64,000 nt of DNA. Source: Escherichia phage vB_EcoM_phAPEC6. The stretch lies in sequence record MK817115.1; one strand, written 5' to 3'. The notes beneath the pieces are model-generated. The model did no database searches. It was not told where the DNA came from and saw only the letters and a program-made list of their open reading frames with translations. Both the position numbers and the translations under genes were made by a program. Positions 27,958 to 47,600 of this stretch are shown piece after piece (positions within the stretch are counted from its first letter, which is position 1; each line of letters begins with the position of its first letter).

Positions 27958-28045
27958 TGTATTTTACTCTCCATGTTTAAATCCAATAGGTACAATCCTT
28001 GTACCATCAATGTTATTATAGCACCAAAAAGCAGTTTGTCCCACG

Positions 28046-28088: not shown

Positions 28089-28820
28089 ATGATTGATCGT
28101 AGAATTCGATTACGACCTAAAGCCGCAGGTGCTAACTATGTATATGGTGATTTTGGAGATAGCTCCGAACCAACTCTACTTTCGTTTCTGCGTCCAACTA
28201 ATGGGTTGGTTTGGACTGTAACACCAACAATTACTGAACAAAGGTCAATTCAGTATGAAACACAGTCCCCTATACATACTAACAGTAACTATAACAACTA
28301 TAAGAACACTACTAATACAGTTTTCACGATTCAGGGTGAATTTTATGCGAATACAGCAGCAGAAGCTATGTATGCGTTGGCATGTGTTCATTTTATACGT
28401 TCTGTTTCGTTGATGGATTTTGGTAGACAAGCTGCTTCGGCTAATAACCCCGAACTCGCAATTGCAGGTGCACCACCACCAATCTTACTTCTAAGTGGAT
28501 ATGGTCGTTATACATATAATGATATTCCTGTTATTTTAAAATCTTATAATTTTACTTACCCAAATGATGTTTCTTATATTCAAGTTCCGTTGAATAGTAG
28601 CGATAGTACTTTTAATTTATCCGACATGGATAGTAGAAAATTCTTCGAACAACTTAGAAGTACTGGATATATGAACCCACAAGATGAAGTTTGGGTTCCA
28701 CAAAAAATCTCAGTTATGTTACAACTTGAAGAACAACCAACATCGGATTATATGACTAAAACGTTCAACCTCAATGCATTCAAACGTGGTGAACTATTAC
28801 GTAAAGGAGGATTCATTTAA
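28089..28820 (+). CDS. Hypothetical baseplate/tail protein
   Basis: ORF track 27999..28820; start re-picked at ATG 28089 downstream of promoter and RBS; first gene of baseplate operon. Confidence 0.45.
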   Translation: MIDRRIRLRPKAAGANYVYGDFGDSSEPTLLSFLRPTNGLVWTVTPTITEQRSIQYETQSPIHTNSNYNNYKNTTNTVFTIQGEFYANTAAEAMYALACVHFIRSVSLMDFGRQAASANNPELAIAGAPPPILLLSGYGRYTYNDIPVILKSYNFTYPNDVSYIQVPLNSSDSTFNLSDMDSRKFFEQLRSTGYMNPQDEVWVPQKISVMLQLEEQPTSDYMTKTFNLNAFKRGELLRKGGFI

Positions 28821-29134
28821 TGTCCAACTATAGTCAATACTCACCTTACGCTAAGGTGAAACAAACATGGTATCTTGGGTATACTTTACCACGTGATATT
28901 GTTCCGGCTGATACTGATGATTTTTATGAGATCCCATTGAAATATGAATATCAACCTTGGCGTTTAGCATACGAAATGTATGGTAATGAACGCTTATATT
29001 ATATTTTCGCATTGTTAAATCCAGACATACTAGGAGAAGATCCTATATATAATTTTAAAAGTGGAGTAACAATTAGAATACCAGCAAATCAAAGAGTACA
29101 GAATTATCTTAATGGTACTCGAAACATAGGCTAA
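28820..29134 (+). CDS. Small baseplate-associated protein, possibly LysM-like fold
   Basis: TAATG coupling; C-terminal YNFKSGVTIRIP resembles LysM/gpX-type peptides; weak. Confidence 0.3.
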   Translation: MSNYSQYSPYAKVKQTWYLGYTLPRDIVPADTDDFYEIPLKYEYQPWRLAYEMYGNERLYYIFALLNPDILGEDPIYNFKSGVTIRIPANQRVQNYLNGTRNIG

Positions 29135-29145
29135 TGGAGTAACGT

Positions 29146-31395
29146 ATGGCAGATTTACGAAGTACAGTTGATAATTTTCAAAATGATATTACAAGTATTA
29201 CTGGTAAGGCTAAAACCACCACATCTAATGCACTTGATAGTTTGAAAGCTACAGCAAATACATTACAAAATGATGTAAAAACTATTACAAAAAATAATTA
29301 CAAAGCAAATGTAAGTAATGTAGTATCATTACCAAAACAAAGTGCTAGTGTTGATCAAGTTTATGAAGATCTCGATTTAAGTCAGTTTGTAATACCGTAT
29401 GACAATAAATTATTGAAATATGATAACCCAACTTGGCACTTTTGTTTATTTGCCTTAGATAAAGATGATTTTAAAAACTTTTGGCTTTACCCAGATGCAG
29501 AAGTGCAACGACATGTGATATCAGAAAGTGGTGTTACTGGCAAATATAATATCACTAGTGTACAAATGACACAAGCTGGACCTTCAACACCAGGAATGAC
29601 AACAAACTATTGTTTTAATACAGCAGTACTTAATATGTCTGAAAATAATAGTATGAGTCTATATGATGAATTAATTTCGTTAAGTAACAAACTTAGATAT
29701 CATAAATTTATGGACTTGCCATTGATCTTGGAATTAAAGTTTATTGGCTTTAATAAAAATGGAATACCTGAAATTATCCCAGAAACAACAAGACGCTGGT
29801 CAGTTAAAATTAATAGTGTTACTGCAAGTGCTTCACAAAGTGGTAGTACTATGATGTATACTATGAACTTAGTTCATAATAGAGCAGCTTTAGTTGATAA
29901 CATTGAATGGACCTTAAAAGAACCATTCAATTGTACTGCTGAAAACTTTGGTGACTTCTGTTTTGATTTAGAAGATAAATTAAATCAGATGGCTGACCAA
30001 CAATATGGTTATCTTAGATATAAATTTGGTGAATTATCCGAAGGTAAATTTTTCGAATTTAAAGTAGCACCAGATTTGCAAGATTTGTTTATAAACTATG
30101 ATTCTAAACAAATGGCAGAGGCCGGAACAACTAAAAGTGGTGCACAAGGTTCTAAAAACTTTTCATGGAACCCAAGTACTCCTATATCTCGAATTATTGA
30201 TGACGTTATTGATACATGTACTGTACAAGCCGATGATAGTACTAGTGTGCGTCAATTTGTAAACATTATACCAGTTAAACAATACGTTGGTTTTGATAAT
30301 TATCGTAATACTTCTGTTTATAAAGTAATTTTTTATATTGTTAGATTTAAAATAGGTGATATTGTTCATGAATCGGATTTACAACCTGAAAATTTCACAT
30401 TTGAGTACTTTTTTGAGAACGCAGAAAAATACGTAGATCCTAATGATCAAAAACCAAAAATAAACATGAAAACTTATAATTATCAATTTAGTGGACTTAA
30501 TAGTGAGATACTTGATTTGGATTTGAAATTTGATCAGCAATTTTTCGTAGCCACTACACGTAACCCTGGTCCGATACAAGATGTAGCGAACCATGCAGGT
30601 ACACATACATCCCAAGAACTCAATATTCAAGGTGTACAATACAATAGTATACCAGACGCATGGGCAAAAACAAGTGATTTACGTGTAACTCGTGATTTAG
30701 GAGGGATGTTAACACAAGCCCAACAACAATTGTTAACTGAAGTTGAAACTTTAGCAAAAAATCAAATGCAGGTTGGTAACGCAGAAGAACAAGACCGTTA
30801 TAATAACTATCAAGTCAATGTTTTACCTCAATATATTGAAGATTATGTAACCACTTATGAAGAAAACGATGGTGGCACTGATGGTGTTGGTCACCGTTAT
30901 GGTGAAGTGTTCACAATGCCAACCGAAGCAACTAACAATGAAACAACTTTATCCGCTTCGTTAAACGATAACAGCAGCACATATGAAATGGATAGACGTA
31001 AAATACGTGACAACTATTACAATAGACCTTTTTTGTGTAAACTCGATATGCGTGTAGTAGGCGACCCGTACTGGTTAGGGTGGAGTGATTACTCTTACTT
31101 ACAATATCTAGAACAAGTAATTAATGGTGAAGATATGGAAATTAACCCAGATGATTATCATGTAGCAAATTATATAACATCTGAAGCGTATCTATTACTA
31201 AAATTACAACCAGTAATATCAATAAATGATAACACTGGTGTTTTGGATATTAATACACCAACCACATTTAACCAAACAATTTATCGTGTTAATAAAATTG
31301 TTCATGATTTTGGTGCAGGTGGTTCTTTTACACAACAAATTCAAGCTGCAATTGTAATTCGTGCACTCAAACGTCACGATAGTATAGTTGATTAA
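29146..31395 (+). CDS. Hypothetical baseplate hub-associated protein (749 aa)
   Basis: Directly upstream of the spike gene in same operon; GGAG RBS; no motif recognised. Confidence 0.4.
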   Translation: MADLRSTVDNFQNDITSITGKAKTTTSNALDSLKATANTLQNDVKTITKNNYKANVSNVVSLPKQSASVDQVYEDLDLSQFVIPYDNKLLKYDNPTWHFCLFALDKDDFKNFWLYPDAEVQRHVISESGVTGKYNITSVQMTQAGPSTPGMTTNYCFNTAVLNMSENNSMSLYDELISLSNKLRYHKFMDLPLILELKFIGFNKNGIPEIIPETTRRWSVKINSVTASASQSGSTMMYTMNLVHNRAALVDNIEWTLKEPFNCTAENFGDFCFDLEDKLNQMADQQYGYLRYKFGELSEGKFFEFKVAPDLQDLFINYDSKQMAEAGTTKSGAQGSKNFSWNPSTPISRIIDDVIDTCTVQADDSTSVRQFVNIIPVKQYVGFDNYRNTSVYKVIFYIVRFKIGDIVHESDLQPENFTFEYFFENAEKYVDPNDQKPKINMKTYNYQFSGLNSEILDLDLKFDQQFFVATTRNPGPIQDVANHAGTHTSQELNIQGVQYNSIPDAWAKTSDLRVTRDLGGMLTQAQQQLLTEVETLAKNQMQVGNAEEQDRYNNYQVNVLPQYIEDYVTTYEENDGGTDGVGHRYGEVFTMPTEATNNETTLSASLNDNSSTYEMDRRKIRDNYYNRPFLCKLDMRVVGDPYWLGWSDYSYLQYLEQVINGEDMEINPDDYHVANYITSEAYLLLKLQPVISINDNTGVLDINTPTTFNQTIYRVNKIVHDFGAGGSFTQQIQAAIVIRALKRHDSIVD

Positions 31396-31408: not shown

Positions 31409-34072
31409 ATGGCAGATACAAGTAAAAAGTATGCACAACAGCAGTTGGGTCGTTTTGACCCATCTTATCCGCAGTTAGCAACTGTTATGGATAACAGAGA
31501 TCCAACTAAATCAGGAAAACTGAAAGTTTGGATACAAGGTTCTCAAAGTGATAAAAACTCAAAAGAATCATGGATAGAAGCATCTTACATGTCTCCTTTT
31601 GCTGGTAAAACACCAGGTATTCCAAGTGCTGATGCATATGGTCAATATCCAAAAGGATACGGTTTTTGGGCAGTACCACCAGACGTAGGGTGTACAGTTG
31701 TTGTAATTTTTGCACAAGCCCGTACATTCCAAGCATATTGGATTGGTTGTGTATATGACCAGCGTATGAATACTATGGTTCCAGGTATGGCAACTGAAGT
31801 AAGTAATTATGGTGGAACTGATATGCCACTTCCTGTTACTGACTATGATCGTAACACTATCACTACCGATATGCAAGACAAATATGCTAACGTTCCAATT
31901 ATCGCAGGTCTTAAAAAGCAAAACCTTTTATATGACGAAGAAGCTGGGTTGGCGAATCGTAGTAGTACTCGACAAACCACCAGTACTGTATATGGTATGT
32001 CTTCGCCACGTGGTAATAGTTTTATTATTGATGATGGATATACTGAAGAGGAATTAACAGCACCAACGTGGGATCAAGACCCAGATGGATATCAAGATAC
32101 ACAATTTAATAACCCAGTAAACGATACACGTGTTGGTTCTCGTAAAAATGAAGGTGTCGTAATAAAAACACGTAGTGGTGCACAACTTCTTTTATCAGAA
32201 GCTACTGGTGATGTTCTTTTAATTAACCGTGATGGCACTGCACGTATAAAATTCACTGGTGAAGGTGATATTGACATGCACTGTGATAAGAATATTAATA
32301 TTCGTGCTGGTCAAGATATTAATATTACTGCTGGACGTTCATATAATATTGAAACCGGACAAGATTTCAATGCACGAGTTGGTGCAAATACTAAATTAGA
32401 TCTAATTGGTGCTCTTGATGCAAAAGTTGGTGGACAAGTTGTTGTTAATTCTGGGGCAGACCTTCGTTTAGTTACGGCTGCATCATTACGTATGCAAAGT
32501 GGTAGCAGTACTGATATTACGGCTGGTTCAAATGCTTCTATTTCTGCCGCAACATCTGCAAACCTAATTGGATCATCATCAGCAATTATTAGTGGTGGTG
32601 GTCAAACATTAACAGTTAATAGTGGTGGTAATAGCGGTACTGCTGAATTTACTGCACCAAACTTTAGAACACCATCTGCTGGTCTTAATGAACACATTCA
32701 TGATATCGCTGCATGGGTTAACGCTGAAAATCATGGTAGTTATGTTGAACCACCAAGACAAGGTGGTGGAAGTGGTTCTAGTGAATCACCAGTACAACCA
32801 CAACCAGCAAATGATGTATCACCAGAATTACCCGTAGCACAAGACACTGAAGCTGTTCAGTTTGTTAACTATACATCAGAAACTGAACAAGTTCAATCAC
32901 AAGATTTGATGACATCTGATCCTGGGATGACTGGATATAGTATTACATATGAAGGTTTACATATGTTAATGCCATGTAGCGGTACTATTCGACAATATGG
33001 TTACTGGGGGAAAGGTGTTCCAACACAAAGTGGAGGAAAGGCAGACCGTTCAGGTTGGGAAATACAATGTAAAGGTGATGTAGTTGCACCAGATGGTGGT
33101 GTGGTAGTAATTACTAATGGTGCTCTTTTAATACAACATAAGTCTGGATATAAATCTATTTTTTATAATATTCAATCTGATTTATTAAACAAAGATGTTG
33201 TTCAAAAAGGTCAAGTTGTTGGAAAAGCAAATGGTGTCATACAGTTTGAAATTCGTGTTACATCAGCAAATGTTCTTGGATTCAGTGGTTCTGTTGACCC
33301 AGGATTATTTTATGCTTCACAAACAGGAACAGGGTCTGATGCGGCGAATAAAACATTAATTGGTGGTCAAGCAACTAATCAATCTGCTCCAAAAGCAGTT
33401 GTACAACCTTCAGTTGATAGTGATGAATTGGTAGTTACAACAAAAATCAAAACGATAGGTACTGGATATTCTCAACGTGGTTCTCGTCATGTGCCTCGTA
33501 GGAGAAGAACACAGAGAAGTGGAGCTTCAACAACTCCGGTGGAGCAACCTACCTATAATATTGGAAATGTTGATAAAACTGCAATCGATTGGAAAGTTGT
33601 TCCAGGTGATGCACAATTTATTTCTGAATTAAAAGAATATGAAGGTACATTACAATACCAACAAGCAAAAGGATATTATCGTAATGGTAAATTCTGGCGT
33701 TATTTGGATAGTCGTGGGTATCCAACTATTGGTTATGGTCACTTAATTATTAGTGGTGAAAACTTTTCAGATGGAATAACTGAACAGCAAGCCAACGATA
33801 TGTTAGTTCGTGATAGTAGTAAAGCTATATATGATGCTAAATCAATTTATGCTTCATACAACATGAAAACACCTTATTTGGCTCAACAAGTACTATGCCA
33901 AATGGTATTCCAGATGGGTAAAGGTGGGGTACTTAAATTTAAAACTATGTTGTCTGAATTAGCTAAAGGTAATTATAAACAAGCTGCTGCTCAAATACGT
34001 AATTCAGCTTGGTATCGCCAAACTACTCGCCGTGCTGAGTTAATGGCTCGTCGTTTAGAGGCATGTCAATAA
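31409..34072 (+). CDS. Baseplate central spike (gp5/gpV-like) with beta-helix and C-terminal GH24 lysozyme domain
   Basis: N-terminal gpV-like segment VMDNRDPTKSGKLKVWIQG; repeated x-G-x-x-x-N beta-helix region; C-terminus aligns with T4 lysozyme (EYEG...D...TIGYGH, MVFQMGKGGV, WYRQTTRRAE). Confidence 0.7.
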   Translation: MADTSKKYAQQQLGRFDPSYPQLATVMDNRDPTKSGKLKVWIQGSQSDKNSKESWIEASYMSPFAGKTPGIPSADAYGQYPKGYGFWAVPPDVGCTVVVIFAQARTFQAYWIGCVYDQRMNTMVPGMATEVSNYGGTDMPLPVTDYDRNTITTDMQDKYANVPIIAGLKKQNLLYDEEAGLANRSSTRQTTSTVYGMSSPRGNSFIIDDGYTEEELTAPTWDQDPDGYQDTQFNNPVNDTRVGSRKNEGVVIKTRSGAQLLLSEATGDVLLINRDGTARIKFTGEGDIDMHCDKNINIRAGQDINITAGRSYNIETGQDFNARVGANTKLDLIGALDAKVGGQVVVNSGADLRLVTAASLRMQSGSSTDITAGSNASISAATSANLIGSSSAIISGGGQTLTVNSGGNSGTAEFTAPNFRTPSAGLNEHIHDIAAWVNAENHGSYVEPPRQGGGSGSSESPVQPQPANDVSPELPVAQDTEAVQFVNYTSETEQVQSQDLMTSDPGMTGYSITYEGLHMLMPCSGTIRQYGYWGKGVPTQSGGKADRSGWEIQCKGDVVAPDGGVVVITNGALLIQHKSGYKSIFYNIQSDLLNKDVVQKGQVVGKANGVIQFEIRVTSANVLGFSGSVDPGLFYASQTGTGSDAANKTLIGGQATNQSAPKAVVQPSVDSDELVVTTKIKTIGTGYSQRGSRHVPRRRRTQRSGASTTPVEQPTYNIGNVDKTAIDWKVVPGDAQFISELKEYEGTLQYQQAKGYYRNGKFWRYLDSRGYPTIGYGHLIISGENFSDGITEQQANDMLVRDSSKAIYDAKSIYASYNMKTPYLAQQVLCQMVFQMGKGGVLKFKTMLSELAKGNYKQAAAQIRNSAWYRQTTRRAELMARRLEACQ

Positions 34073-34084
34073 ATATTTTAGTAC

Positions 34085-34092
34085 TATAAATA
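34085..34092 (+). promoter_or_regulatory. T4-type late promoter TATAAATA for free lysozyme gene
   Basis: Exact box 17 nt upstream of ATG 34109. Confidence 0.45.
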
Positions 34093-34108
34093 AAACGAGG
34101 ATATCTTT

Positions 34109-34597
34109 ATGAGTAAATGGGAAATTAAAAATACAGATGAGCAATTTTTTAAGGAAATTAAAGAATTTGAAGGAACTATTGCTTATCAGAAAAAACTTGG
34201 TTATTTTAAAAATGATAAGTTTTGGGTATATAAAGACAGCTTAGGTCTTGATACTATTGGCTATGGTCACCTAGTTTTACCTGGTGAAAATTTCAAGAAT
34301 GGTTTAACAGAAGCACAAGCTGACCAACTTCTTCTTAAAGATGCTCAAACTGCGTACAATGATGCAAAATCAATTTATGAACAATTTGGTATGACCGCAC
34401 CTGTACAGGTTCAACGTGTATTATGGTTAATGGTATTCCAAATGGGAAAAACCAAAGTTTTGAAATTTAAAAAAGCAATGACCGCATTAGGTAAAGCTGA
34501 TTACAAAACTGCTGGTAAAGAATTGCGTGATAGTACATGGTATAAACAAACCACTTCACGAGCGGAAAAGATGGCACGTATCGTTGAATCCGTATAA
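34109..34597 (+). CDS. T4-type lysozyme (GH24), probable endolysin
   Basis: EFEG / D / TIGYGH triad positions, LWLMVFQMGKTKV, WYKQTTSRAEKMA align with T4 lysozyme as recalled; 162 aa. Confidence 0.85.
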   Translation: MSKWEIKNTDEQFFKEIKEFEGTIAYQKKLGYFKNDKFWVYKDSLGLDTIGYGHLVLPGENFKNGLTEAQADQLLLKDAQTAYNDAKSIYEQFGMTAPVQVQRVLWLMVFQMGKTKVLKFKKAMTALGKADYKTAGKELRDSTWYKQTTSRAEKMARIVESV

Positions 34598-34612: not shown

Positions 34613-35008
34613 ATGGCAGTTGTTTTTAAAGGGTTTTCTACCCCTGTAGTTGGTAGAACTGAAACATTGTATGATAGTGAATTGGTTCGCCAAGATTTAA
34701 TGAATCATTTCAATACAAAAAAAGGTGAACGAGCATTTGATGCTGACTATGGGTTTATTGCATGGGATTTGCTATTTGAATTGGAAGGTTATAATACTAT
34801 CAACCTTTTAGAAGCAGATGCCCGTAGAATAATTAGCTTAGACCCACGTTTAAATCTTAAAAAATTACAAATTTCAAGAATAGAATATGGATACCAAATG
34901 AATATTGTATTACAGTACGTAGTATTGGACGCATTAGAAGAACTTACTATAGTATTTGATGCAAGAAGTAATAATCGAATGGCAACATATTCAGTTTCGT
35001 CTTTATAA
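34613..35008 (+). CDS. Baseplate wedge protein (gp25/gpW-like)
   Basis: GERAFDADYGFIAWDLLFE aligns with T4 gp25 GSRPFDPEFGCDLSDQLFE as recalled; 131 aa. Confidence 0.65.
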   Translation: MAVVFKGFSTPVVGRTETLYDSELVRQDLMNHFNTKKGERAFDADYGFIAWDLLFELEGYNTINLLEADARRIISLDPRLNLKKLQISRIEYGYQMNIVLQYVVLDALEELTIVFDARSNNRMATYSVSSL

Positions 35009-35013
35009 TTATA

Positions 35014-35044
35014 AAAGCACTCTTCGGAGTGCTTTTCTTTTTGA
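35014..35044 (+). terminator. Intrinsic terminator with UUCG tetraloop (agcactc-ttcg-gagtgct plus T-run)
   Basis: 7-bp stem, ttcg loop, T-rich tail. Confidence 0.6.
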
Positions 35045-35109
35045 ATAAATATTTCTATATATAATTCCCAGTACTGATCTAGTACTTTACTGATTTAAAG
35101 GAATAAATT

Positions 35110-38100
35110 ATGTCACAACAAAAAAGACAGTCTAATTTATATAGTGGTGAGGATTGGACTCAAGTATATGAAAGTTTTTATAAAATCAATCTAACAGCTT
35201 ATGATTTCGATACTATCCGTCAGAGTATGATTGATTATCTACGTGCAACTTACCCAGACTCATTCAACGACTGGATCGAAAACGACCAGTTTATTTTTAT
35301 TTTAGATACGATTTCTATGCTAGGTCAGAACTTGGCATTTCGTATGGATTTGAACACACGTGAAAACTTTTTAGATACTGCAACTCGTCGTGCATCAGTA
35401 CTAAAACTAGCTAAAATGATTTCTTACTCACCACGCCGCTCATATCCAGGTCGTGCAGTTGCTAAATTAACCGAAATTAAAACAAACCAAGATGTTCGTA
35501 ATAGTTTTAATGAATCATTAAAAGATAAAATCATTCGTTGGAATGACCCGATGGATGCTAACTGGTATGAAAACTTTATTCTAGTAATGAACAGTTCATT
35601 TGTCAGTACTAACCAATTTGGTAATCCAGTCAAGCGTATTGATGTTAATGGTGTCTCCCGCCAACTATATCGAATGAACACCATCCCAATGACAGCACCC
35701 AGTATTCCATTTGTTGCAACTGTCAATGGTGAATCTATGACATTTGAAGTAGTGAATCCTGATATTACGTCTGTTGGTGTTGAAGAACGACATCCAGAAC
35801 CACAAGAGCAAAAATATATTGTTTATCAAAATGATGGTAATGGATTTAGCTCACCAAATACTGGGTTTTTTGTATATTTCGTACAAGGTACATTGACATA
35901 TCAAGATTATCAATATGCTATCCGTGAAGAGAACCGTATACAAGATATTAACGTTGATAATATCAACGAAACTGATGTATGGGTTCAAGAAATAAATGAA
36001 GATGGTATTGTTCGTACCAAATGGACAAAAGTTCCATCAATGGAAAGTATTGCATATAACACTGTTAATCGTCAATTAAAAACAATTTTTGCTGTTACTA
36101 CTCGTGATAAAGATCAAATAACAATTAAGTATCCAGACTCAAGAAGTGGTGTTGTTCCCCGTGGGACGTTCCGTGTATGGTATCGTGTTAGTAATGGTAA
36201 AACATATAACATTAAAACTTCTGAAATTCAAAATAAAAGCGTAAAATATACATATCGTACAAAAACACAGTCAAGTTATGAATCTAGTACATTGGATATA
36301 CGTTTTTCATTACAATATGAGTCCGACCGTGCACAAAGTGCAGAGACTATTGAGCAGATTAAAGCACGTGCACCACAAATGTACTATACACAAAACCGTT
36401 TTGTCAATGGTGAAGATTATAATATTGCACCACTTAGTTTAGGCAATACTGTACTTAAATCTAAAGCTATTAATAGAATTTATAGTGGACAATCAAGATT
36501 TATTGATATTAATGATCCTACTGGTAAGTATCAAAATACCGATGTTTTTAGTGATGATGGTGCATTATATCAAGAAAACACACAATTTAATAGGTCATTA
36601 TTACTACCAACTACAAAAACAAATGCTAGTATTGTTATTGACAATATTCAACCATTGATTGGTGAAAATGCGGTAATACAACGTTACCAAGCGTTTCCAT
36701 CAAATACAATTGGTATTGAAATACAACAAGCATGGACTCCGGTATACAATTCAAATTATACAACTAACACATATGGTAGAATTTTGGGTTCATCTGGTAC
36801 AGTTTATGGTTCATATCAGGTTGGTACTCTAATTAAATTTTCTAATTCTGGAACTACTATATGGGCTAGTGTAGTTAGTGTATTGGATAATGGATTTTAT
36901 GTACTGAGTACATCGGTTCCAAGTGGAATGCAAGCCATAGAGTACATTTTACCATATAGAACTAGATTTAACTCGGTTGAAGTTCAAGCAATTTCTGCTA
37001 TGCTAGATAAAAAAACTGATTTTGTTATTGTACATGACAAAGAAACGACATCATGGGTTCCTATTGAAGTAAGTACCAATGATGATACTATTGTATATAA
37101 TGGCAATGAAGTTTTAATTATAATTAATGTAAAATATACAGCAGAAACTTGGGAATTTGATGCTAACGGTATTGAATATATTTTTGTGGGTGGAGAAAAA
37201 GTAAGATTTTACTTTGTATCATCTAAAAAAATTACTGATATTAGTACTGGTACAGTTCAAAGTGATAAGATTGAAATTTTATCATCTAACACTACTAGTA
37301 GTAGTAATTCAGGATTGACAAGTAATATAGATTTTCAAATTTATGACACAATTCAACAAGAGAATGGCTATCTAGATGGTTCTCGTGTTATTGTTACATC
37401 TAGGAAAGTAGATAGTAATGGTATACCATTGGAACCAAACCAATTTAAAGAAATTGTTCCTACTTGGACTGGAACCGATGCATTAAAATATGGTGGTATT
37501 TTGGTATTTCAGGAAAATAGTGATTTCACTATATCAGTACTGTCGTTACCAAATGATACCTTCACACTTCTTGATTCATCGTGGTCTTATACAATGGAAC
37601 AAGCCTTGGCAGAGCCGAATGCATATAAAAGAACTGAATTTGTTAGAAATAACGCAATTCGTTCAACCACATTGAGTGGATTATATAGTAAAGGTTCTGG
37701 ATTTTTAGTTGGTTTTAACTATGATGGTAAATATTATTTTATTGAACAAACAGTTGGTAATAACAATGATCGTTTAGGACAGCTAATTAGTAATTTAACT
37801 TATTCCGATGATACTGGCACTGTTAGTCCTGAATTGGCTTTTTATCGTGCAATTAATAACATGGGAACTAATGCTGACGAGAATCAGAAGCTAGATTATT
37901 ATGGATACAAAGATGTTACTTCACAGTACACTGTTAAAACTAATGCACGTACTAGTATAGACTTCCATTGGAAACACTATGCACCTGACGACAATCGCAT
38001 TGATCCTAGTAGAACAAACTTAATTGATATGTATGTATTAACCAATTCATATAAAACTGAAGTTGACGTTTGGTTGAAAAATAATGCTGTTGGTAGTATT

Positions 38101-38571
38101 CCTAAACCACCTACATCGGTTGAATTGAAAGATATGTTCAAAGATGTTGAACAAAAAATAGTCATTAGTGATAGTATTATTTGGCATAGTGCTGAGTACT
38201 TACCTTTATTTGGCAACAGTGCTGCTGAAGATTACAAAGCTGATTTTAAAGTAGTGAAATTACCAAACAGCACAATGAGTGACGATGAAATTCGTCAAAA
38301 TGTTATAGCATTAACTAATGAATACTTCAATGTTGACAACTGGGATTTCGGTGAAAGTTTCTATTATACTGATTTGTGTACTTACATACACTCACAGTTA
38401 GGTAGACATATTAGTACCATTGTTATAGTTGCACAAAATCCAAATTCAAAATTTGGCTCTCTATTTGAAATCCCTTCACGTTCAGACCAAATATTTTTGA
38501 GTACTGCATCTGTTGAAAATGTTCAAATTGTTAACTCACTAGCTAAAAGTAATATTAATATCGGTTCTTAA
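35110..38571 (+). CDS. Large baseplate wedge protein (gp6/baseplate-J-like by position)
   Basis: 1153 aa directly after gp25-like gene (conserved W-J order); AAAGGAA RBS; no motif confirmed. Confidence 0.45.
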   Translation: MSQQKRQSNLYSGEDWTQVYESFYKINLTAYDFDTIRQSMIDYLRATYPDSFNDWIENDQFIFILDTISMLGQNLAFRMDLNTRENFLDTATRRASVLKLAKMISYSPRRSYPGRAVAKLTEIKTNQDVRNSFNESLKDKIIRWNDPMDANWYENFILVMNSSFVSTNQFGNPVKRIDVNGVSRQLYRMNTIPMTAPSIPFVATVNGESMTFEVVNPDITSVGVEERHPEPQEQKYIVYQNDGNGFSSPNTGFFVYFVQGTLTYQDYQYAIREENRIQDINVDNINETDVWVQEINEDGIVRTKWTKVPSMESIAYNTVNRQLKTIFAVTTRDKDQITIKYPDSRSGVVPRGTFRVWYRVSNGKTYNIKTSEIQNKSVKYTYRTKTQSSYESSTLDIRFSLQYESDRAQSAETIEQIKARAPQMYYTQNRFVNGEDYNIAPLSLGNTVLKSKAINRIYSGQSRFIDINDPTGKYQNTDVFSDDGALYQENTQFNRSLLLPTTKTNASIVIDNIQPLIGENAVIQRYQAFPSNTIGIEIQQAWTPVYNSNYTTNTYGRILGSSGTVYGSYQVGTLIKFSNSGTTIWASVVSVLDNGFYVLSTSVPSGMQAIEYILPYRTRFNSVEVQAISAMLDKKTDFVIVHDKETTSWVPIEVSTNDDTIVYNGNEVLIIINVKYTAETWEFDANGIEYIFVGGEKVRFYFVSSKKITDISTGTVQSDKIEILSSNTTSSSNSGLTSNIDFQIYDTIQQENGYLDGSRVIVTSRKVDSNGIPLEPNQFKEIVPTWTGTDALKYGGILVFQENSDFTISVLSLPNDTFTLLDSSWSYTMEQALAEPNAYKRTEFVRNNAIRSTTLSGLYSKGSGFLVGFNYDGKYYFIEQTVGNNNDRLGQLISNLTYSDDTGTVSPELAFYRAINNMGTNADENQKLDYYGYKDVTSQYTVKTNARTSIDFHWKHYAPDDNRIDPSRTNLIDMYVLTNSYKTEVDVWLKNNAVGSIPKPPTSVELKDMFKDVEQKIVISDSIIWHSAEYLPLFGNSAAEDYKADFKVVKLPNSTMSDDEIRQNVIALTNEYFNVDNWDFGESFYYTDLCTYIHSQLGRHISTIVIVAQNPNSKFGSLFEIPSRSDQIFLSTASVENVQIVNSLAKSNINIGS

Positions 38572-38602: not shown

Positions 38603-38650
38603 ATATCATAAATAAATCAAATGAATGAACGAATTATATGGAGTCCAAAA

Positions 38651-41600
38651 ATGACTAATAATTTTAAGTTTCAACCTACACAGATGGCTGAAGCAGTACA
38701 GAAGAAGCTTTTTATTAAAAGATTGCCTGAGTGGATGCAAGGCTTAGAAGATATTCAAAAAGTCAGTGATGATGTTATTCAACAATGGTTTAATCCGGCT
38801 GAAAACGAATTAGTTGACGGCTATATTGGTGATATGGGTTCTCCTGCCGCTGCTGGTAATATCTTCTTACATGAAAGTACTGTAGCACGTCAACTTTATC
38901 AGTTGTCCACTGCTTACGTCTCAAAAAATGATGATTCGACAATTCGTTCAATTCAATTTTATGATGATCTAGTTGGATACATGAATCATTATGGAGCACT
39001 AACCGATAATGAAAGCCGTTTGTTCAACGGTAAGTTTTATGCATGGACTCCAGCTATTAACCCAAATAAAATGAACAATTTTAGCTCATATCTTTGGGAT
39101 ACTAAAAACTCTTATAATATTACTTCACCTGATTACATTGTAATGGAACGTGGAGCACTTAATGGTAATACATGGTCACTACAAAACTTTTGGTATACTT
39201 TAGGTGAAACATTAGAAGATGGCTCAATATTAACTGAAGAATTAATGCAAGATTCACGTTTTATTCGTGCACGTGCACCAATTATTGAATATAATAAAAA
39301 TATTGAGCTAATTAACTACGGTACAAAATTCCGTGGAACTGTTGATCTGTTCTCTGATATTATTAAACCTGAAGATATCGTTCAAAAAGATATTAATAGT
39401 GGTATACGTATTGATGGTATTATTCCGCAAGATGGAATGCGTATTCTATTCACCAGTATTGGTAACAATGGTGAAAACAATAGAATTTATAATGTATATG
39501 TGAAAAAAATGCAAGATGGTACTCGTGTTTATGGTTTAGCACTAGATCCAGAAGAAGAAACCGAATCACGCCCAAGTGGTGAACCTCAAGATGGTGATGT
39601 TGTTCTAATCACTAAAGGTAATGAGTATGGTAATAGTTCTATGTACTGGAATGGATCTTTGTGGGTTCGTGCACAATCAAAAACTAGTGTTAACGTATTC
39701 CCTAAATTCCAACTTTATGATCGTAATGGTATCAAACTTGACAACAGTACTACATATCCATCAAGTAACTTTAAAGGTTCAGAGTTGTTTGGTTTTAAAA
39801 TAAATTACAACTATGCAACTGATAGTGTATATGGATATAACATTGAACTTGGTGATTATAATTATTACATTTATGAAAACTTTTTACAATCCCAACGTTA
39901 TACCTATGACCATCTTGGAAAAGAAGTTGAAATTGATGGTTTATACTATTATAACATTATTGATGAAAATAATGAAATGAATCTTCAAACCGATTGGGTT
40001 CGTTCAGAAGAGTACTCTAAACAATTTGTAAAACAAACTCCACAAGTCCAACGTACTGATATGTATCGTGTATTCAGTACTGTTTATGATATGGAAGTTT
40101 TTAAAGAACCAGTTGATGGTATGTATGCATATGTTATTGAAGTTGATAGAACATATCAGTACTATAAAGCTGACCGTGAAACTTATCTAGATTGGCATCC
40201 AATTACTGGTGATGGTGTTCAGATTGTAAAATATGACCATACATTCGAATTGGCACAAAAAGTTTTAGATAATGATTCTGATATTATTGAAGTTGTGGTT
40301 GATGGTGTTGATGTGTCCAAATATACCAAAAATGTTTCAAAAGGTCAAGTACAAAGCATCACTCTAGATAGTACTGTAGAATTGGATGAAGATTCTGTTA
40401 TTCAAATTAGAACTTATAGCAGTACTGTAACTCCTAATAAAGAATTAGGTGCATATGAAGTTCCAATCAACCTACAAAATAACCCATATAATTCTAATAT
40501 TATATACATTAACCAAGGTGACTACACTTTACATTTTCAGGATATTATTCAAAAGAACATTACACGTGGTTCTTCTGATGATTTCAATGACTATGAAGAA
40601 CGTTTGGCTAAAGGATTGGTTAATAATGGCGTAGGTACTAAAATTATCCAAAATGAAGCATCTATGCTTCCATTGATGGCACATACTGCAAATGAAGATA
40701 TTGATTTGTTTGAAGCAACTATGTTTATGCAATCTGAATATTTTAGATTCATTAATAAATTTAATACACAAATGCTTCGTATGTATGATGAAAATCCATC
40801 AGACTTTTTACAAAATAGTGCTGCAAACATTGTTGATGCAATTTTAACTACTATTAATATGGGACGTGATAGTTCATTCCCATTCTATTATGATAATGTT
40901 GGAAGTACTTCTGGATTCATTCGTGCATTTATACCACCAACACCACAGTTCTTAGGTATTCTTCAAGCATATGTACCAGAAAAAGCGACATTCCTCACTG
41001 CTGGTAGTAAACCAAGCTGTTATAACATCAGTCATACTGGTATTATTTCCAAAGCATACCGTGTTATCAATGGTGTTGATAAAATGGATGATGTTGTATA
41101 TGAATTAGAAAATAGAATTTTTAATAGTATTGATAATAAATTCAAAGATGTTGATTACGTACCAGTATTGAATAGTGATGACCTTTTCCCTACACCATAT
41201 TTCACTAAAACTGAATATAGTGCTGAAGAGAAACAAACATTATTACTACGTGGATACATTAACTTCACCGCAACTAATGGTATCAGTAATAGTACACATG
41301 ATTATGATCCTAACAATTGGAGAACTTGGAACTATACTGGCACTTATTATGTAGTTAATGGTCAAAGTACTGAAATTCCTGCACGTGGTTCATGGCGTGC
41401 CATTTACACTGACCAATATGGTACATATCGCCCAGCTACCCATCCGTGGGAAATGTTTGGCTTTACACAACGTCCAACTTGGTGGAACCAAGAATACGAA
41501 CCAACGGCTGTTCAAGTTGGTGAACGTGATAGTGATGTTGTATATGTATATGAAGCACTTGTTATGAATGAGCAAGGTGATTTAGTTCCTAGTGGTCTTT

Positions 41601-44600
41601 GGGATATTGACGGAACTATTGGAGATAGCAGTACTGGAACTATTTTATTTGGTGATCGTCGTGGTCAATATGACAAATATAAAAGATTTGGTGTACAGCC
41701 ATTCAAAATTACAAAAACTGGAAATAAAACATCTTCTGGTATTGATATTTGTGTGGTTGAATATATTGCACCTGAAATTTTAGGTTTAGTGTCTGGATCT
41801 TTAAATCATAGAGCAGAACCTTGGACATATGGTGATATGGGTGACATGGAATTTACATACATGAACACTACATTGTTTGCATATGACCAAATGATGCTTT
41901 TGTATAAAGCTAAACCAGCACAATTTGCTAACTATTTCTGGGATACCCGCAACGATAACTTAAAAGAAGTATTCACTGATGGTTCACAATTCCTTTATGG
42001 TGATACACGTAAGCGTATTAATTTTGATAAAAATACAGTAGTTCATGGTGAAAATAGCACAAGAACAATTGGTTATCAAATGTTTGTAAGTGACCATTTG
42101 ATGTATCAAAATAAAAATATTACCACCAAGTATGGGGATGTAGTTCGTTCTTCTTATATAAATGTTGGTCATAAAATTGGAGGATTTACTAAAGCAGATC
42201 AGCTAACATTCAATGCTAAATCTTTCGGTCTTATTTCACAAGAAAACCAAACCATTGGTCTTGTTCGTTCTAATAATATCCGTGATGAGCAAATGAGTGC
42301 GATCAAAATTACTTGGAATGGTAGTGCATATCAGATTGATGGATATGATCTAGTTGGTGCTAAATTTAAATATAAACTTCCAGTAAAAAATGGTAGAAAA
42401 GTAACTCTTAAATTGGAAAACCGTAATGTTGTTCATTATAATGAATGGAAGTCTGAAGCTTCAATTGAATATGGTAAAGTTTTCAATAGTTACCAAGAAG
42501 TTTATACTTTTATTTGTGGATATGGTGAATATCTTAAAGAACATGGTTGGATTTTTGAAGATGTAAATGATAGTGGTGCTCAACAAGATTGGAACACTAT
42601 TGCTAAAGATTTCGTGATCTGGAGTCAGAATTCTCTAGTAACTGGTGAATTTATTTCTTGTACCCCAAGTGCTGCAAACGCTAAATTTGGGGCAGACTTT
42701 GGTTCAGTACAATCTATTACGCAAAATAATGGTGGTGTATGGTCATTACTTGATGATAATAACCAAGGTATTCGCCAATATGAAATTGAAACTTCTCGTA
42801 TTGGAAATATCTTCACTGTTAGAACTTTAGAATCTAATAAACGCATTGCATTGATTCGTTTAAGTTTGTGTTCATATGAACATGCTGTTATTTTTGATGA
42901 TAAAACTATTTTTGGTGATTACATTTATCAGCCAACATATGGTTCTATTCAAGAACTAATTAAAATGTATGGATATATTACTGGTTCATGGACTGGTCGC
43001 CTACAAGCTCCTGGATTTATTATCTTGGAAGCTGGAACACTACCATCATTTGAAAAATTAGTGTCGGATTTCCAACATTATTATGATAGTGAAACTCCAG
43101 TAAGTGATGTACAATTACAAGAGTTGTCAAACCATTTGATTGGTTATCAATCTCGTGATTATCTACAGCGTATGATTAGTAGTGATGTTAGTCGTGTTGA
43201 TTTCTATAAAGGATTCATTCACGATAAAGGTACTAACCAAGTTTTAGAACGTGTACTTCGTGTTTCTAAATCATATGACACTGATGAATATAAAGCATTA
43301 CAAGAATGGGCATTTAAAATTGGTACATATGGTAATATTGATGGTAAGAAAAACCTTCAATTTAAACTAATCAATGACCAATTTAAACAACAACCTCAAA
43401 TGGTTTCTTTTGATGTAAATGCAACTTCAAATGGTAATGGTAATCATATTGTATACTTCGGTGAGCAAGGTAAAGATCCTCGTTGGATTACACGTCCAAA
43501 TGGTAAGTTCTCATTCCCAATGCGTAGTGGAAGAAGTGAAAACATCCAACTTCCAGATATTGGTCCAGTAACATTGGATGAAGTATCGTACACAACAAAA
43601 GATTTCAGTACTGCATATAATGACCGCATAACTTATACTAATGGTAAAGGTGAAAATCCTGAATCTGTGTGGATGTTTAAAGACGGTAATGGTTTGTGGA
43701 ACATTTTTGAATTGGTTGATACTAATGTACAAATGGTTTCTATAACACCTATTGAAAATACCGATGTGTATGCTGAACAATTTTGTAAAGTAACTTTAAC
43801 TGATAATGTACCACTTGAAGATGGTGATTATTATTATTTTGTTGATGAAACTAACTTTATGCCAGATACTTTAACAGTAGAAAGTCAATATTATACTGCT
43901 GGTTCTGATCCTAAAGTTATGGTAGTTCCATTTGACACTTCTATTGATATTGAATTTACTGATCCAGATACACGTCCACGTTTGTATCGTTATGTATCAC
44001 GTTTTGCCAGTACTGATGAACGTCAAGCTTACATTGACAAGAAATATAGTTTTAAAGCACCACAAAGTACTTTATTTGATCGTCCAACGACATATGATGA
44101 ACGTACTAACATTACTGAGCTATATCTAAACGTTTATGACCCAATTAATGGTGTTATTCCAGGTGCGGCTATGCAAAACGTAACATATACTTCACCAGTT
44201 GATCCTGCACAGTATAATAGTAATGGAGAGTTAATCCAGGCTTGGGGTGCTGATAAAGTTGGTCAAGTATGGTGGAACACTAGCACTGCATTTTATTTGG
44301 ATTATACTCGTGCAATTTATGACGCAGACGGTAATGTTGATATTGATGCAACCAATGAATACAAACGTTACAACTGGGGCCGTTTGTTACCACATAGTAC
44401 CATTGATGTGTTAGAGTGGGTTTGTTCACCAGTTGAGCCATATAACTGGGACAAATACTGTAAAGATGTTGCTAAGAAAAACAAAAATAATACTATGTAT
44501 CTACCAAGTGGAACTGCACTTGAAGATAATTATAGTACATTTTTGGAATATGATAGTTCAACTGATAGTTATGTAACAAAATACTATTTCTGGGTACGTG

Positions 44601-47600
44601 ATACAATTTATGTACCACCACTACATACCAGAACGAAATCATGTACTGACATTGCTCGTATTATTAAAGATCCAACACAGCTAAACATTCCTTGGTTCGC
44701 TCCAATAAATGAAAACTCGTTTATTCTTAGTAATATGCAATTTAAAGTGAATGATGATACCAGTATTTTAACTGTTTCTTATTACATGGATAGTACTGAA
44801 GTTGTTAAACATGACCAGTATCAACTATGTAAAGAAGGTGACAGCTATAACTTTAACCCACTAATTTGGGATTCAATGTGGAACTCACTAATTGGTCAAG
44901 AAACAACTGAATCAGGTTCTGTGATTAATTTATTATATCCAGATGTTGATAACGGTTTAGGATCAAACAAAACTTGGTTCCAAAATGTTATAGAAGCTCG
45001 TAGAAACTTTGTAGAAAGTGCTAATAATTATTATAGGTCACAAAACATAACCACTAATAGTGTTGTTATGGAAGATGTGTTTAATGTTAAAACCACTGAA
45101 GTTAACCCTAATGAAGTTTCTTTCCGTGTATTGTCTTACAATAATGAATTAGTTATTGCAGTTGAAAGTGATAAATTTAAAGAAAATGACGCTGTTATTT
45201 TAAGTACTAGTGGATATCTACCAAATCCATTAACTTCTAGTGCTGTTTATTTTATTCACTTCGACGAAAATGGATATATTCAGTTAATGAATAGTCCAGC
45301 AAACGCGGGTAGTGTTGTTACTATAACGTTAGAGAACAAAGGTGAGGGACAACATAAAATGATTAAACAATCTGATTATGTTGAATCACTAGGAACTTCA
45401 TTAGACATGACTCAGTACTGGTCATATGCTGATTGGTATGATGTTGGATATGATAGTAACACGACTTATACTCAAGAGTCAAGCTTAGAAGATGCTAATA
45501 CTAAAAACTACCAAGTTGGCGATATTATCAGAGTTACCGATAGTGAAAACATTTGGACATTGTATATTAAATCACAATCACGCGATTCAATTTATTGGAA
45601 AGCGATTGGTCGTGAAAACAGTACAGTTGAACTCAATGATATGCTTTACGCAGATTATAGTGTTCATAATGATAATGGTTCACTAAGCAATCGTGAAATC
45701 AACGTTCGTAAAGCACTAGCTTTACTCAAAAATTCTTTCGATTTACATCAAAGCGAAATTGTTTTTGATATGGTCAAATATGTACATGTTGAACAAAGTG
45801 TTGTGGATTGGGTATTTAAAACATCATATATCTATATTGTTGGTTTGGAACAATCATTAGTTCAAAACTATTCAAACGATAATTTGATTAATCAAATTGT
45901 TGAATATTTTGAAGAAGTTAAACCTTATAGAACTAAAATTCGTTCACAAATAGAGCAAAAGACATCTGATGATGATTTAATAAAAGGTCTATGTAATGAT
46001 TTAGATCCTAATGGATATATTTTCGTTGATGGTTCTTGGATCAAAACTGAAAAAGATATTTGGGATTATGAGTACGCTCAATTTAATGAAATTACCCAAA
46101 AATGGGAACAGGTAGGTTCACTACCAAGTGATTTCGTTACACCAAATAGAAGATTCCAAGAAATTGATATTATTATGCATTATGATAATATTCAGTGTAA
46201 ACCAAATGAAGATTTGGCAAGCATAAATGAATTAGTAAGTGTTAATAACAAATATCAATCCAATGAAAAGGATGCTGTTAGTAACTATGAATTACAACGT
46301 TATATATATTCTTTCCCAGAATATAGTGAAGAAACTTTCGATCTTCTTATTGCTTATCAAATGCAAATCTACTATCCAGAATTGGATGTAACACTAGGAA
46401 CAGCATATGGCGTTAACCAGTGGTATAAAGACCATGCGGAAGATTTAGAAGCAACTGATGAATTCACTGCTACATTGGAACGTGTTTATAAAGAATCAAC
46501 GCATAACGATATGTTTACTGACCTTAGACAATATGTTCAGTATAACACATTGGCAAACCGTTTGAAACTTTATAAAGATATAAGTGATGAGAAAATTCAC
46601 GATGAAGTTGGATGTGGATTTAGTGGACTTACTTATAATGACAATCCTAGTACTAGACTTCCATTAGGCTTTTCTTCTAGTAATGATTATAACTATGGAT
46701 ATTTTGAAATAAGCAGTGAATTGTATCAAAAATACATTTCATTAATTAAAGATAAAAATCCTGACGCATCAGACTATGAAGTAAAAGTTAAACTTGAAGT
46801 TGAGTATGGTGTATATGTTTATCGTTATGATGAAGTAGGTGGTGATACCCGTTTCTATACTGATGCTATTCACGTATTAGCAGGTATGAGAGGGTTATTC
46901 GACAAAGACGCTACTGATAAGTACGAAAAAGCTGAAGAGATTCTTAGTAAGACCCCAATTGATATCTATGCAATTACAATGATTCCACGAAAATATGTTT
47001 ACTTAAATGTTAACGGTGTATATCAAAGTATACCTGATGAACAAAGTATTGATGATTTCATGGAAGATTATTTTATCACAAATGGTGAAATGGTTGAACT
47101 AGCTGAAATAAATCTTGATGATTTACCACTAGATCAAAATAATCCAATGTATTCTGATTATCAATATATACTTGATAGTATTACTGAAGCTAAGTACTTC
47201 AATGATATGAATGCATTTGATAACCTAGCATTGGAATCTCAAACTTCTTCAATAAAATGGGAAGTTAAAGATGATGAAGTTGATCCTTATATTGTGGATA
47301 TATCTGACATAAACCCTTCTGGGCGTGATGTAGGTCAAATTAGATTTACAGTTGATGGATATGGGTTTGACAATGTATCTCTTGTACAATTACGTGATAA
47401 CAGCAGATATCAAACTGAAGGTATGGCAATTATCAATCCATATAAACATACAGAAGCAATTGTAAGTATTCCTTCATATGCTAAGATTGAAAATGATATT
47501 AATAAAACAACATCGAAGTTTGATGAAAAATATTTCTATCGTGTGAGATCTATTAATAGCTTAACTGAAGCAGAAATAGTTGACAATGACCTATCTGATG

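Follow-up and report, generated by a model that had tools for sequence, protein, structure and literature searches.

Why should the baseplate spike of a phage carry a lysozyme at its C-terminus behind a peptidase-like domain that lacks the peptidase ligands, and how old is the second lysozyme gene that immediately follows it? Here, we analyzed this locus in a 64,000-nt stretch of phage DNA (hereafter the window, 99.7% identical to PBECO4 at the nucleotide level). The locus lies in the middle of the baseplate module in a PBECO4/121Q-type jumbo myovirus (Asteriusvirus, RaK2-like). Two open reading frames were recovered, exactly at positions 31409-34072 (887 aa) and 34109-34597 (162 aa); these and all other features described below are on the plus strand. 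The explanation that we consider quite likely as a whole is that the first gene encodes a central spike with a degenerate LytM domain (dLytM) and a tethered GH24 lysozyme, and that the second encodes an ancient free paralogue of this lysozyme.

Architecture and setting of the spike

The spike gene (31409..34072; calculated mass of the product 95.9 kDa) has orthologues in PBECO4 (annotated as 'virion protein and lysozyme murein'), 121Q (gp587), RaK2 (gp078), CBB (CBB_240), GAP32 (GAP32_234) and phAPEC6 (gp241). Orthologues have been found by virion mass spectrometry (PMC7247149, PMC5259590), including phAPEC6 gp241, whose mass equals that calculated for the window spike (PMC7247149). The flanks are of baseplate type, with gp53-, gp25- and gp6-like genes. 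Upstream are a gp53-like wedge gene (28820..29134; Pfam Phage_gp53, 22.3 bits) and, directly before the spike gene, a gene for a 749-aa virion structural protein (29146..31395); this pair (28820..31395) matches phrog_7145 and phrog_11190, and the corresponding phAPEC6 proteins gp239 and gp240 were detected in virions (PMC7247149). A gp25-like wedge gene (34613..35008; Pfam GPW_gp25, 34.6 bits; phrog_43) is located directly downstream of the two lysozyme-encoding genes.

The 887-aa protein is a gp5/VgrG-type central spike of the baseplate, composed from N- to C-terminus of an OB fold, a beta-helix, an LxxHxH motif, linker 1, a LytM-fold domain, the disordered linker 2 and a GH24 lysozyme. The gp5/VgrG-type OB fold (residues 23-116; 31475..31756) was recognized by Pfam PF04717 (Phage_base_V; 29.8 bits, cut-off 23.8) and aligned with the OB domain of the T6SS VgrG 9jg8. 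It is followed by a triple-stranded, VgrG/gp5C-like beta-helix (residues ~251-425; 32159..32683), within which residues 278-329 matched DUF2345 (Pfam, 34.7 bits, cut-off 30.7). Comparison of the family profile of this helix with the PDB identified VgrG1 (4uhv, E 4.6e-7) and further VgrGs, and the phage central spikes 9f4a and 8kea_D matched weakly. At the end of the helix we found an L-x-x-H-x-H motif (L426-N-E-H429-I-H431; 32684..32701), a candidate metal-binding apex whose H-x-H is shared by every aligned relative, seven distant metagenomic/Vibrio-phage ones among them. It may resemble the iron-binding HxH at the spike apex of P2 gpV and phi92 gp138, neither of which was among the PDB matches of the beta-helix profile, where only helices of the VgrG type were recovered. 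A match between HHHH in 4uhv and the HxH motif was discarded as a His-tag artefact. By homology, the spike should form a trimeric membrane-piercing needle.

Beyond the helix, the domains are separated by two linkers. Linker 1 (residues ~447-517; 32747..32959) is rich in Gly, Ser, Pro and Gln, carries a conserved PANDV motif and has pLDDT <50 over its first 14-19 modelled residues. Linker 2 (residues ~636-727; 33314..33589), which lies behind the LytM-fold domain, is predicted to be disordered (pLDDT <50 in both models; residues 636-717 in the two-domain model) and carries the invariant motif S670-x-E-L-V ... I683 ... G691-S ... P696 and, behind it, a basic RHVPRRRRTQR stretch. Docking of this motif onto dLytM or GH24 was considered and rejected, as the linker stayed disordered in the two-domain model, which resembled beads on a string (pTM 0.46).

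The spike ends in a T4-type GH24 lysozyme domain (residues 728-887; 33590..34072; pLDDT 75-93). A preliminary description of this DNA had placed the lysozyme C-terminally, in contrast to the internal lysozyme of T4 gp5, and the domain does lie after both the helix and dLytM. Phage_lysozyme (PF00959) matched residues 765-882 (45.2 bits, cut-off 22.3), and gp5 lysozyme domains and T4 lysozyme (T4L) were retrieved from the PDB with E-values of 4e-11 to 1e-8. E745, D767 and T773 align with E11, D20 and T26 of T4L, and muramidase function is predicted from this intact triad. Among the fused copies of relatives, the Thr position is occupied by Ser (XaC1) or Asp (7t3 and Hallingskeid).

In the mechanism that we propose, sheath contraction would drive the needle through the outer membrane. 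The cell-wall module is positioned after the helix, in the order linker 1, LytM fold, disordered linker 2 and GH24 muramidase, and the three tethered GH24 domains would then cut glycan strands locally, which may permit passage of the tube.

The free lysozyme and its possible roles

The free GH24 lysozyme gene (34109..34597) encodes a protein of 162 aa (18.7 kDa, pI 9.3) with orthologues in 121Q (gp586), RaK2 (gp073), CBB (CBB_239) and UE-S1 (LysUE1). PF00959 matched its residues 40-147 (37 bits, cut-off 22.3). E21, D43 and T49 align with the same T4L residues as above, so that the catalytic Glu/Asp/Thr, which had been singled out for checking, is conserved in both lysozymes of the window. The protein has neither a hydrophobic segment nor an export signal. 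Purified LysUE1, also of 162 aa, lysed EDTA-treated E. coli, and the primer used for its cloning is identical to the first 21 nt of the gene described here (2025; PMC12805682). A tblastn search inside the window found no third lysozyme; the membrane-anchored endolysin of this group is encoded elsewhere in the genome.

A TATAAATA box (34085..34092), similar to T4 late promoters, is located 16 nt upstream of the ATG of this gene, and a GAGGA Shine-Dalgarno sequence occupies 34097-34101. As the number of TATAAATA sites in the window was not above chance (7 vs 10.8 expected), only their placement is informative: five of the seven are intergenic and at most 60 nt upstream of a co-oriented start, compared with 6% of composition-matched octamers (P ~1e-5). 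Upstream of the free lysozyme, the box is kept in Asteriusvirus and RaK2, degenerate in 7t3 and Hallingskeid, and absent in GAP32, CBB, Yen9-04, BF and XaC1. An ATAAATA motif and a gp55-like sigma factor have been reported for CBB and GAP32 (PMC5259590). The short distance to the ATG counts against a promoter, because transcription initiated at the distance usual in T4 would begin within or next to the Shine-Dalgarno sequence. It is plausible that the TATAAATA box is a late-type promoter, and the free lysozyme is probably expressed late, via read-through and/or from such a promoter of its own.

With regard to function, the free protein is most likely a cytoplasmic lysis-phase or auxiliary lysozyme. 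It is rather unlikely that it is instead a structural or ejected baseplate-associated protein, acting for example with the spike or gp25, even though its position between the spike and gp25-like genes is strictly conserved in the baseplate module, its promoter context is of late type and the group possesses a separate predicted endolysin with a membrane anchor, the SAR-type CBB_187 (PMC5259590). The protein is a bare GH24 fold with no recognizable docking domain, and the Vibrio relative does without it. In addition, it was not detected in the virion proteomes of RaK2, CBB and phAPEC6 (PMC3622015, PMC5259590, PMC7247149), which is weak evidence since the phAPEC6 proteome did not contain the gp25-like protein either (PMC7247149).

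A LytM fold without catalytic residues

Residues ~518-635 of the spike (32960..33313) were assigned to a degenerate, non-catalytic domain of the LytM/M23 fold. The peptides from which an M23-like domain with replaced HxxxD and HxH ligands had previously been suspected are all present (GWEIQ 549-553, LIQHKSGY 574-581 and GVIQFEIR 609-616), and this suspicion agrees with our alignments: His and Asp of HxxxD are replaced by R547 and E551, HxH by V610-I-Q612, and the catalytic His by N587. Zinc ligands and catalytic His are lost in 14 of 14 phage orthologues and in 7 of 7 distant relatives, and the residues found at these positions vary (R/H/N; E/I/T; N/D/G; V/I/L; Q/E/K/L). Since HxxxD, HxH and the catalytic His are absent from every relative, the domain is not an M23 peptidase and fits the definition of dLytM.

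The assignment is based on profiles, relatives and a structure model built from an alignment of only 8 sequences. As a single sequence, window residues 502-727 had no match in Pfam or the PDB (none to PF01551 at E<=10), and two word-indexed searches of 5.8 billion proteins with the middle region, one with the single sequence and one with an alignment, gave essentially no matches. An exhaustive HMMER scan yielded only 8 representatives, namely seven spikes of ~870-985 aa and one 84-aa fragment. The family profile matched DipM (8e-8) and SpoIIQ (1e-7) in the PDB, and the ~20 top matches were all M23/LytM proteins; DipM and SpoIIQ, whose LytM domains are catalytically dead, are the best sequence matches. 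Two relatives, P0008 (33.4 bits) and P0004 (30.1 bits), passed the PF01551 cut-off of 28.7 and four others fell below it; both P0008 and P0004 are tied to the window domain at E-values of 1e-18 to 1e-35. The model from the 8-sequence alignment (mean pLDDT 63 overall, 84-91 in the core) predicts a LytM beta-sandwich fold.

Purifying selection was observed on every spike domain, and dN/dS of the LytM domain (0.03-0.21) is comparable to that of the beta-helix. All 72 phage records and the 7 distant representatives possess the domain, and 24 columns of the middle region do not vary even among relatives with as little as 27% identity; within the LytM domain, W550, H577, E614, R616 and D630 are invariant. 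The loss of every ligand and of the catalytic His in spite of purifying selection points to a non-catalytic dLytM module, whose most probable task is to bind peptidoglycan or to position and regulate the tethered lysozyme.

A more specific proposal is that dLytM is a regulator similar to EnvC, NlpD or DipM, which would switch on the GH24 domain in cis once the needle is periplasmic, or would dock and activate host autolysins (AmiA/B/C amidases or lytic transglycosylases), with the phage thereby recruiting wall hydrolases of the cell where it enters. We regard it as improbable; under this proposal, the invariant motif of linker 2 could be an autoinhibitory or docking element. It is very unlikely that the domain is an active peptidoglycan endopeptidase with non-canonical residues, which would give the spike two enzymatic activities, as in phi29 gp13 or the hub of cyanophage A-1(L). 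Such a possibility is suggested by the LytM fold with its strongly conserved, invariant residues and by phage tail proteins that pair an active M23 domain with a lysozyme (3csq; PMC10966104). However, with all five canonical positions replaced (R547, E551, N587, V610 and Q612), no joint binding of zinc is expected, these positions are variable among relatives, and the nearest sequences are themselves dead LytM domains. Even less credible is a decaying, functionless remnant, which would explain the loss of all catalytic residues but not the low dN/dS, the invariant columns or the presence of the domain in every phage record and distant representative.

Thus, we favor a spike with a maintained, non-catalytic dLytM. 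In addition, a recombination patch was identified, and dLytM and GH24 behave together as one module in recombination.

Age of the lysozyme pair and comparison with known systems

The fused and free lysozymes align without gaps over 158 residues (53% identity, E 3e-57) and have in common an insertion of ~13 residues relative to T4L. The nearest phage lysozymes outside the group do not exceed 44% identity and align only over residues ~40-162, which makes the two copies each other's closest non-orthologous relatives. The preliminary description had proposed a free paralogue with its own TATAAATA box next to the spike and had attributed it to a recent duplication; paralogy and box were recovered, and the recent date has to be abandoned. 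At the nucleotide level the copies are only 60% identical, with dS ~1.5, and no identical stretch is longer than 13 nt. The preliminary description had itself named excessive divergence of the free lysozyme as grounds for refutation, and on this count the recent date fails while paralogy stands. The order spike-lysozyme-gp25 is kept in Asteriusvirus, Alcyoneusvirus, Mimasvirus, Eneladusvirus and unclassified Xanthomonas, Salmonella and Erwinia relatives, and synteny of the pair extends across at least five genera of RaK2-like jumbophages. Among 200 bootstrap replicates of the neighbor-joining tree, 151 united the free copies in one clade, 138 did so for the non-Vibrio fused copies, and none paired the two lysozymes of the same genome as sisters. 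Gene conversion between them is unsupported, given the short identical run and the absence of own-genome sister pairs. A recent tandem duplication, in which the spike C-terminus was lately copied in this phage lineage, would account for two adjacent, co-oriented and clearly paralogous lysozymes with a common insertion, but can practically be dismissed in view of their nucleotide divergence, the synteny and the separate clades. From these comparisons, we conclude that the free lysozyme is an ancient paralogue in a selectively maintained pair, and that it has kept its position since a time before the group's enterobacterial and Xanthomonas genera split.

Other RaK2-like jumbophages (RaK2, CBB, GAP32, 121Q, PBECO4 and phAPEC6) have the same genes, architecture and synteny, with no substantive difference. 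Previous studies have described the unusual domain order of RaK2 gp078, its C-terminal lysozyme and three lysozymes in that phage (2013; PMC3622015), as well as a weak central M23 match in CBB_240 and the neighbouring lysozyme (2017; PMC5259590). The accounts of orthologous spikes cited here mention an 'M23 family peptidase domain' and are silent on the loss of catalytic residues and the age of the duplication.

T4 likewise has an OB-fold and beta-helix spike with GH24 (gp5), a separate soluble GH24 paralogue (gene e), and gp25-, gp6- and gp53-like baseplate genes as neighbours. However, the order in gp5 is OB-lysozyme-helix instead of OB-helix-dLytM-lysozyme, T4 has no LytM domain, and gene e lies elsewhere in the genome, whereas the free lysozyme adjoins the spike gene. 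We propose that the free lysozyme is the counterpart of gene e relative to gp5. 'Evolved' T6SS VgrGs, such as Vibrio cholerae VgrG-3 with its C-terminal peptidoglycan-hydrolase domain, also combine an OB fold and a beta-helix with a cell-wall enzyme module on a linker after the helix; the window protein differs in being a phage baseplate protein, in lacking the gp27-like N-terminal half and in having dLytM plus GH24 as its effector module. EnvC and NlpD (E. coli), DipM (Caulobacter) and SpoIIQ (Bacillus) are cellular periplasmic or forespore proteins, in contrast to the fusion to GH24 on a phage spike seen here. The peptidase domain of phi29 gp13 is catalytically active. That of the A-1(L) baseplate hub was shown to be active (PMC10966104). 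Both phi29 gp13 and A-1(L) gp15 have another domain order than the window spike, and A-1(L) gp15 is a gp27-like hub rather than a spike.

The arrangement as such is already published and annotated in dozens of GenBank records and adds little to phage biology; only the degeneracy of the LytM domain, the dating of the duplication and the recombination patch are new. Annotations of these spikes should replace 'M23 peptidase' with a non-catalytic dLytM domain, a correction that matters for enzybiotic mining of jumbophage spikes. If dLytM did activate hydrolases of the host or in cis, this would be a new mechanism of phage entry.

The spike gene and its baseplate locus

The window was assigned to a PBECO4/121Q-type jumbo coliphage of the genus Asteriusvirus, in the RaK2-like group, and the 3189-base region comprising spike and free lysozyme shares 99.7% identity with phage PBECO4 and 99% or more with 16 GenBank records. 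The ORFs of the spike (31409-34072, + strand, 887 aa) and of the free lysozyme (34109-34597, + strand, 162 aa) match exactly the coordinates of the preliminary description and lie inside a baseplate module. A gp53-like gene (28820-29134) and the gene for a 749-aa virion protein (29146-31395) are located upstream of the spike, and the free lysozyme is followed by gp25-like (34613-35008) and gp6-like (35110-38571) genes. Directly after the latter is a single 3333-aa ORF (38621-48622), whose size corresponds to the 381.9-kDa phAPEC6 virion protein gp245 (PMC7247149). In the window, only 101 nt of intergenic DNA (35009-35109) separate the gp25-like from the gp6-like gene; in phages 121Q and JNE01 this position is occupied by an HNH endonuclease gene (6670-7434 in both loci) that is annotated as associated with a group I intron. 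Several records misannotate this locus: OQ708376 (CRJP21) lists these genes as "nuclease subunit" and "putative RNA polymerase sigma factor", the free GH24 lysozyme of EJP2 is an "N-acetylmuramoyl-L-alanine amidase", and the SHEFM2K spike is a "GH24 domain amidase".

Pfam placed a gp5/VgrG OB fold at spike residues 23-116 and a VgrG-type beta-helix segment at 278-329. The helix ends in an L-x-x-H-x-H motif (residues 426-431), which is kept in all relatives and which may resemble the iron-binding apex of P2 gpV and phi92 gp138. Then follow a low-complexity linker 1 (residues ~447-517), a disputed middle domain (~518-635), linker 2 (~636-727) and, as had been claimed, a C-terminal GH24 domain (728-887; Pfam Phage_lysozyme at 765-882). 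This domain order separates the spike from T4 gp5; in function the spike is similar to an "evolved" VgrG. PDB searches with the first 480 residues and with a family profile spanning 251-460 matched T6SS VgrG spikes (9jg8, E 1e-5; 4uhv, E 4.6e-7) and, weakly, phage central spikes; the apparent HxH match of this profile in 4uhv is the His-tag of that construct. The calculated spike mass, 95.9 kDa, is that of phAPEC6 gp241, which was found in virions (PMC7247149). The distantly related Vibrio phage 2.275.O keeps the entire spike architecture (OB, helix, HxH, middle domain and GH24) and has neither the free lysozyme nor the 749-aa structural gene preceding the spike in enterobacterial phages.

A degenerate LytM domain in the spike

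As a single sequence, the middle segment had no matches in Pfam or PDB. In 72 phage records it is conserved as part of the spike gene, and it was present in just 8 of 1.84 billion representative proteins scanned; seven of these 8 are spikes of ~870-985 aa that share the architecture, and one is an 84-aa fragment. When a profile of 12 orthologues was searched against PDB, M23/LytM chains took the top seven positions; with a more diverse profile about 20 top matches were M23/LytM, led by DipM (8e-8), SpoIIQ (1e-7) and LasA (2e-6) and also including TagE/Csd, zoocin A, ShyA and EnvC. Pfam Peptidase_M23 was matched directly by six distant relatives, of which two exceeded the gathering score. An AlphaFold2 model from an 8-sequence alignment reached pLDDT 84-91 in the beta-sandwich core, and the 50 Foldseek matches listed from PDB were all LytM/M23 domains, the best among them being EnvC (TM 0.66). 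Profiles, relatives, model and Foldseek together make the predicted LytM/M23 fold a sound assignment.

In HMMER alignments the M23 HxxxD falls on R547..E551, the catalytic His on N587 and the HxH on V610-I-Q612, which bears out the proposal of an M23 fold with these motifs replaced. Canonical M23 residues were absent in all 14 phage orthologues and all seven distant relatives, and by its ligands the domain does not qualify as an M23 peptidase. The ligand columns differ between lineages, and W550, H577, F613, E614, R616 and D630 are invariant. The loss of canonical residues, these invariant columns and a dN/dS of 0.03-0.21 indicate a conserved, functional, non-catalytic LytM domain (dLytM). Domains of this kind in EnvC, NlpD, DipM and SpoIIQ bind or activate partner proteins. 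A lysozyme is likewise paired with an M23-fold domain in phi29 gp13 and the A-1(L) hub protein gp15; unlike in the spike, the peptidase of phi29 gp13 is active. The same difference from the spike applies to the active peptidase of A-1(L) gp15 (PMC10966104).

Linker 2 contains an invariant motif, S-x-E-L-V ... I ... G-S ... P (residues 670-696, window 33416-33496), followed by a basic run, RHVPRRRRTQR. The motif lies within AlphaFold-predicted disorder, yet is conserved down to 27% identity, and may serve for docking, for cleavage or in regulation; no docking on dLytM or GH24 was seen in the AlphaFold two-domain model.

Origin and age of the lysozyme pair

Both lysozymes match PF00959, and alignment with T4 lysozyme confirmed that each keeps the catalytic Glu/Asp/Thr (E11/D20/T26 in T4; E745/D767/T773 in the spike; E21/D43/T49 in the free protein). 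Common to both is a ~13-residue insertion relative to T4 lysozyme between the catalytic Glu and Asp. An ungapped alignment of 158 residues gives 53% identity between the copies. They are true paralogues from a within-lineage duplication, because the nearest phage lysozymes beyond the RaK2-like group show no more than 44% identity, covering residues ~40-162 only. At the Thr26 position, fused copies have Asp in 7t3 and Hallingskeid and Ser in XaC1, whose fused copy also misses part of the family-specific insertion; Thr is retained in every free copy. Constraint is weaker on the fused domains (mean pairwise identity 60% vs 66% for free ones).

The preliminary description considered this duplication recent, which is contradicted by several observations that indicate an old event. 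The codon-aligned copies share 60% nucleotide identity (52% at third positions), with an NG86 dS of 1.5 and a longest identical run of 13 nt. The order spike, 162-aa lysozyme and gp25-like gene is kept across genera, in RaK2, GAP32, CBB, Yen9-04, BF, XaC1, 7t3, Hallingskeid, EJP2, JNE01, 121Q and Ecwhy_1. RaK2 has four small hypothetical ORFs between spike and free lysozyme (5665-7448 of its locus), two of them on the opposite strand. In a neighbour-joining tree rooted with T4 lysozyme (200 bootstraps), free copies were monophyletic in 151 replicates and non-Vibrio fused copies in 138, and the two copies of one genome were never sisters. The fused copy of Vibrio phage 2.275.O branches below the free/fused split, consistent with either duplication after its divergence or loss of the free copy there.

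Compared with 121Q, window ~32900-34108 is only 84-93% identical over precisely the stretch of the spike gene that encodes dLytM, linker and GH24, whereas the flanks on both sides are 99-100% identical. Nearly all differences in this patch are synonymous (dS 0.5-1.3, vs 0.01-0.09 in the N-terminal 517 codons). Asteriusvirus lineages appear to have exchanged this C-terminal enzymatic module by recombination.

Expression and proposed roles of the two lysozymes

The free lysozyme had been credited with its own TATAAATA box, and one is indeed present (34085-34092), albeit only 16 nt before the ATG and conserved only in Asteriusvirus and RaK2, being degenerate or absent elsewhere. The six other boxes (4217, 14343 and 15552 on the - strand; 21510, 23396 and 28046 on the + strand) all closely precede genes and are on the coding strand, at a distance of 30-47 nt wherever a start is called; the box of the RaK2 free lysozyme is 38 nt upstream. 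The 16-nt spacing would put a T4-like start site at the Shine-Dalgarno. In the window, TATAAATA occurs less often than in shuffled sequence (7 vs 10.8 expected). Of the seven sites, five lie between genes and have a co-oriented start no more than 60 nt downstream, and using the annotated start in place of the TTG-called one at 27999 would add a sixth; only 6% of composition-matched A5T3 octamers (605 sites) are so placed (binomial P ~1e-5). This placement would suit a T4-like late promoter class in phAPEC6 and agrees with the ATAAATA late-type motif and gp55-like sigma factor reported for CBB and GAP32 (PMC5259590).

The free protein has a pI of 9.3 and is devoid of hydrophobic segments (Kyte-Doolittle maximum over 19 residues, 0.89). 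Its 162-aa UE-S1 orthologue LysUE1, whose cloning primer equals the first 21 nt of the window's gene, lysed EDTA-permeabilised E. coli when purified (PMC12805682). By analogy, the free paralogue is most likely a soluble late lysozyme, as T4 gene e is to gp5. That it is baseplate-associated instead seems improbable: its gene adjoins the spike in the baseplate module, but the protein was not detected in the virion proteomes of RaK2, CBB and phAPEC6 (PMC3622015, PMC5259590, PMC7247149).

By homology, the spike would form a trimeric baseplate needle, with the cell-wall module dangling from the distal helix end via flexible tethers. The AlphaFold model of the two domains shows dLytM and GH24 well folded and unconnected (pTM 0.46; pLDDT <50 for residues 636-717). 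Upon contraction the needle would pass through the outer membrane and three GH24 domains would cleave glycan strands, with dLytM probably anchoring or positioning the module on peptidoglycan, or regulating the lysozyme.

The closest known proteins are the spike's own orthologues, and this arrangement has already been described: for CBB_240 and its homologues, a central M23 domain was reported as possible (pfam01551, E 6.5e-4), with CBB_239 as the adjacent T4-type lysozyme (PMC5259590). New here are the recognition that the LytM domain is degenerate, an age for the duplication and the apparent recombination patch.
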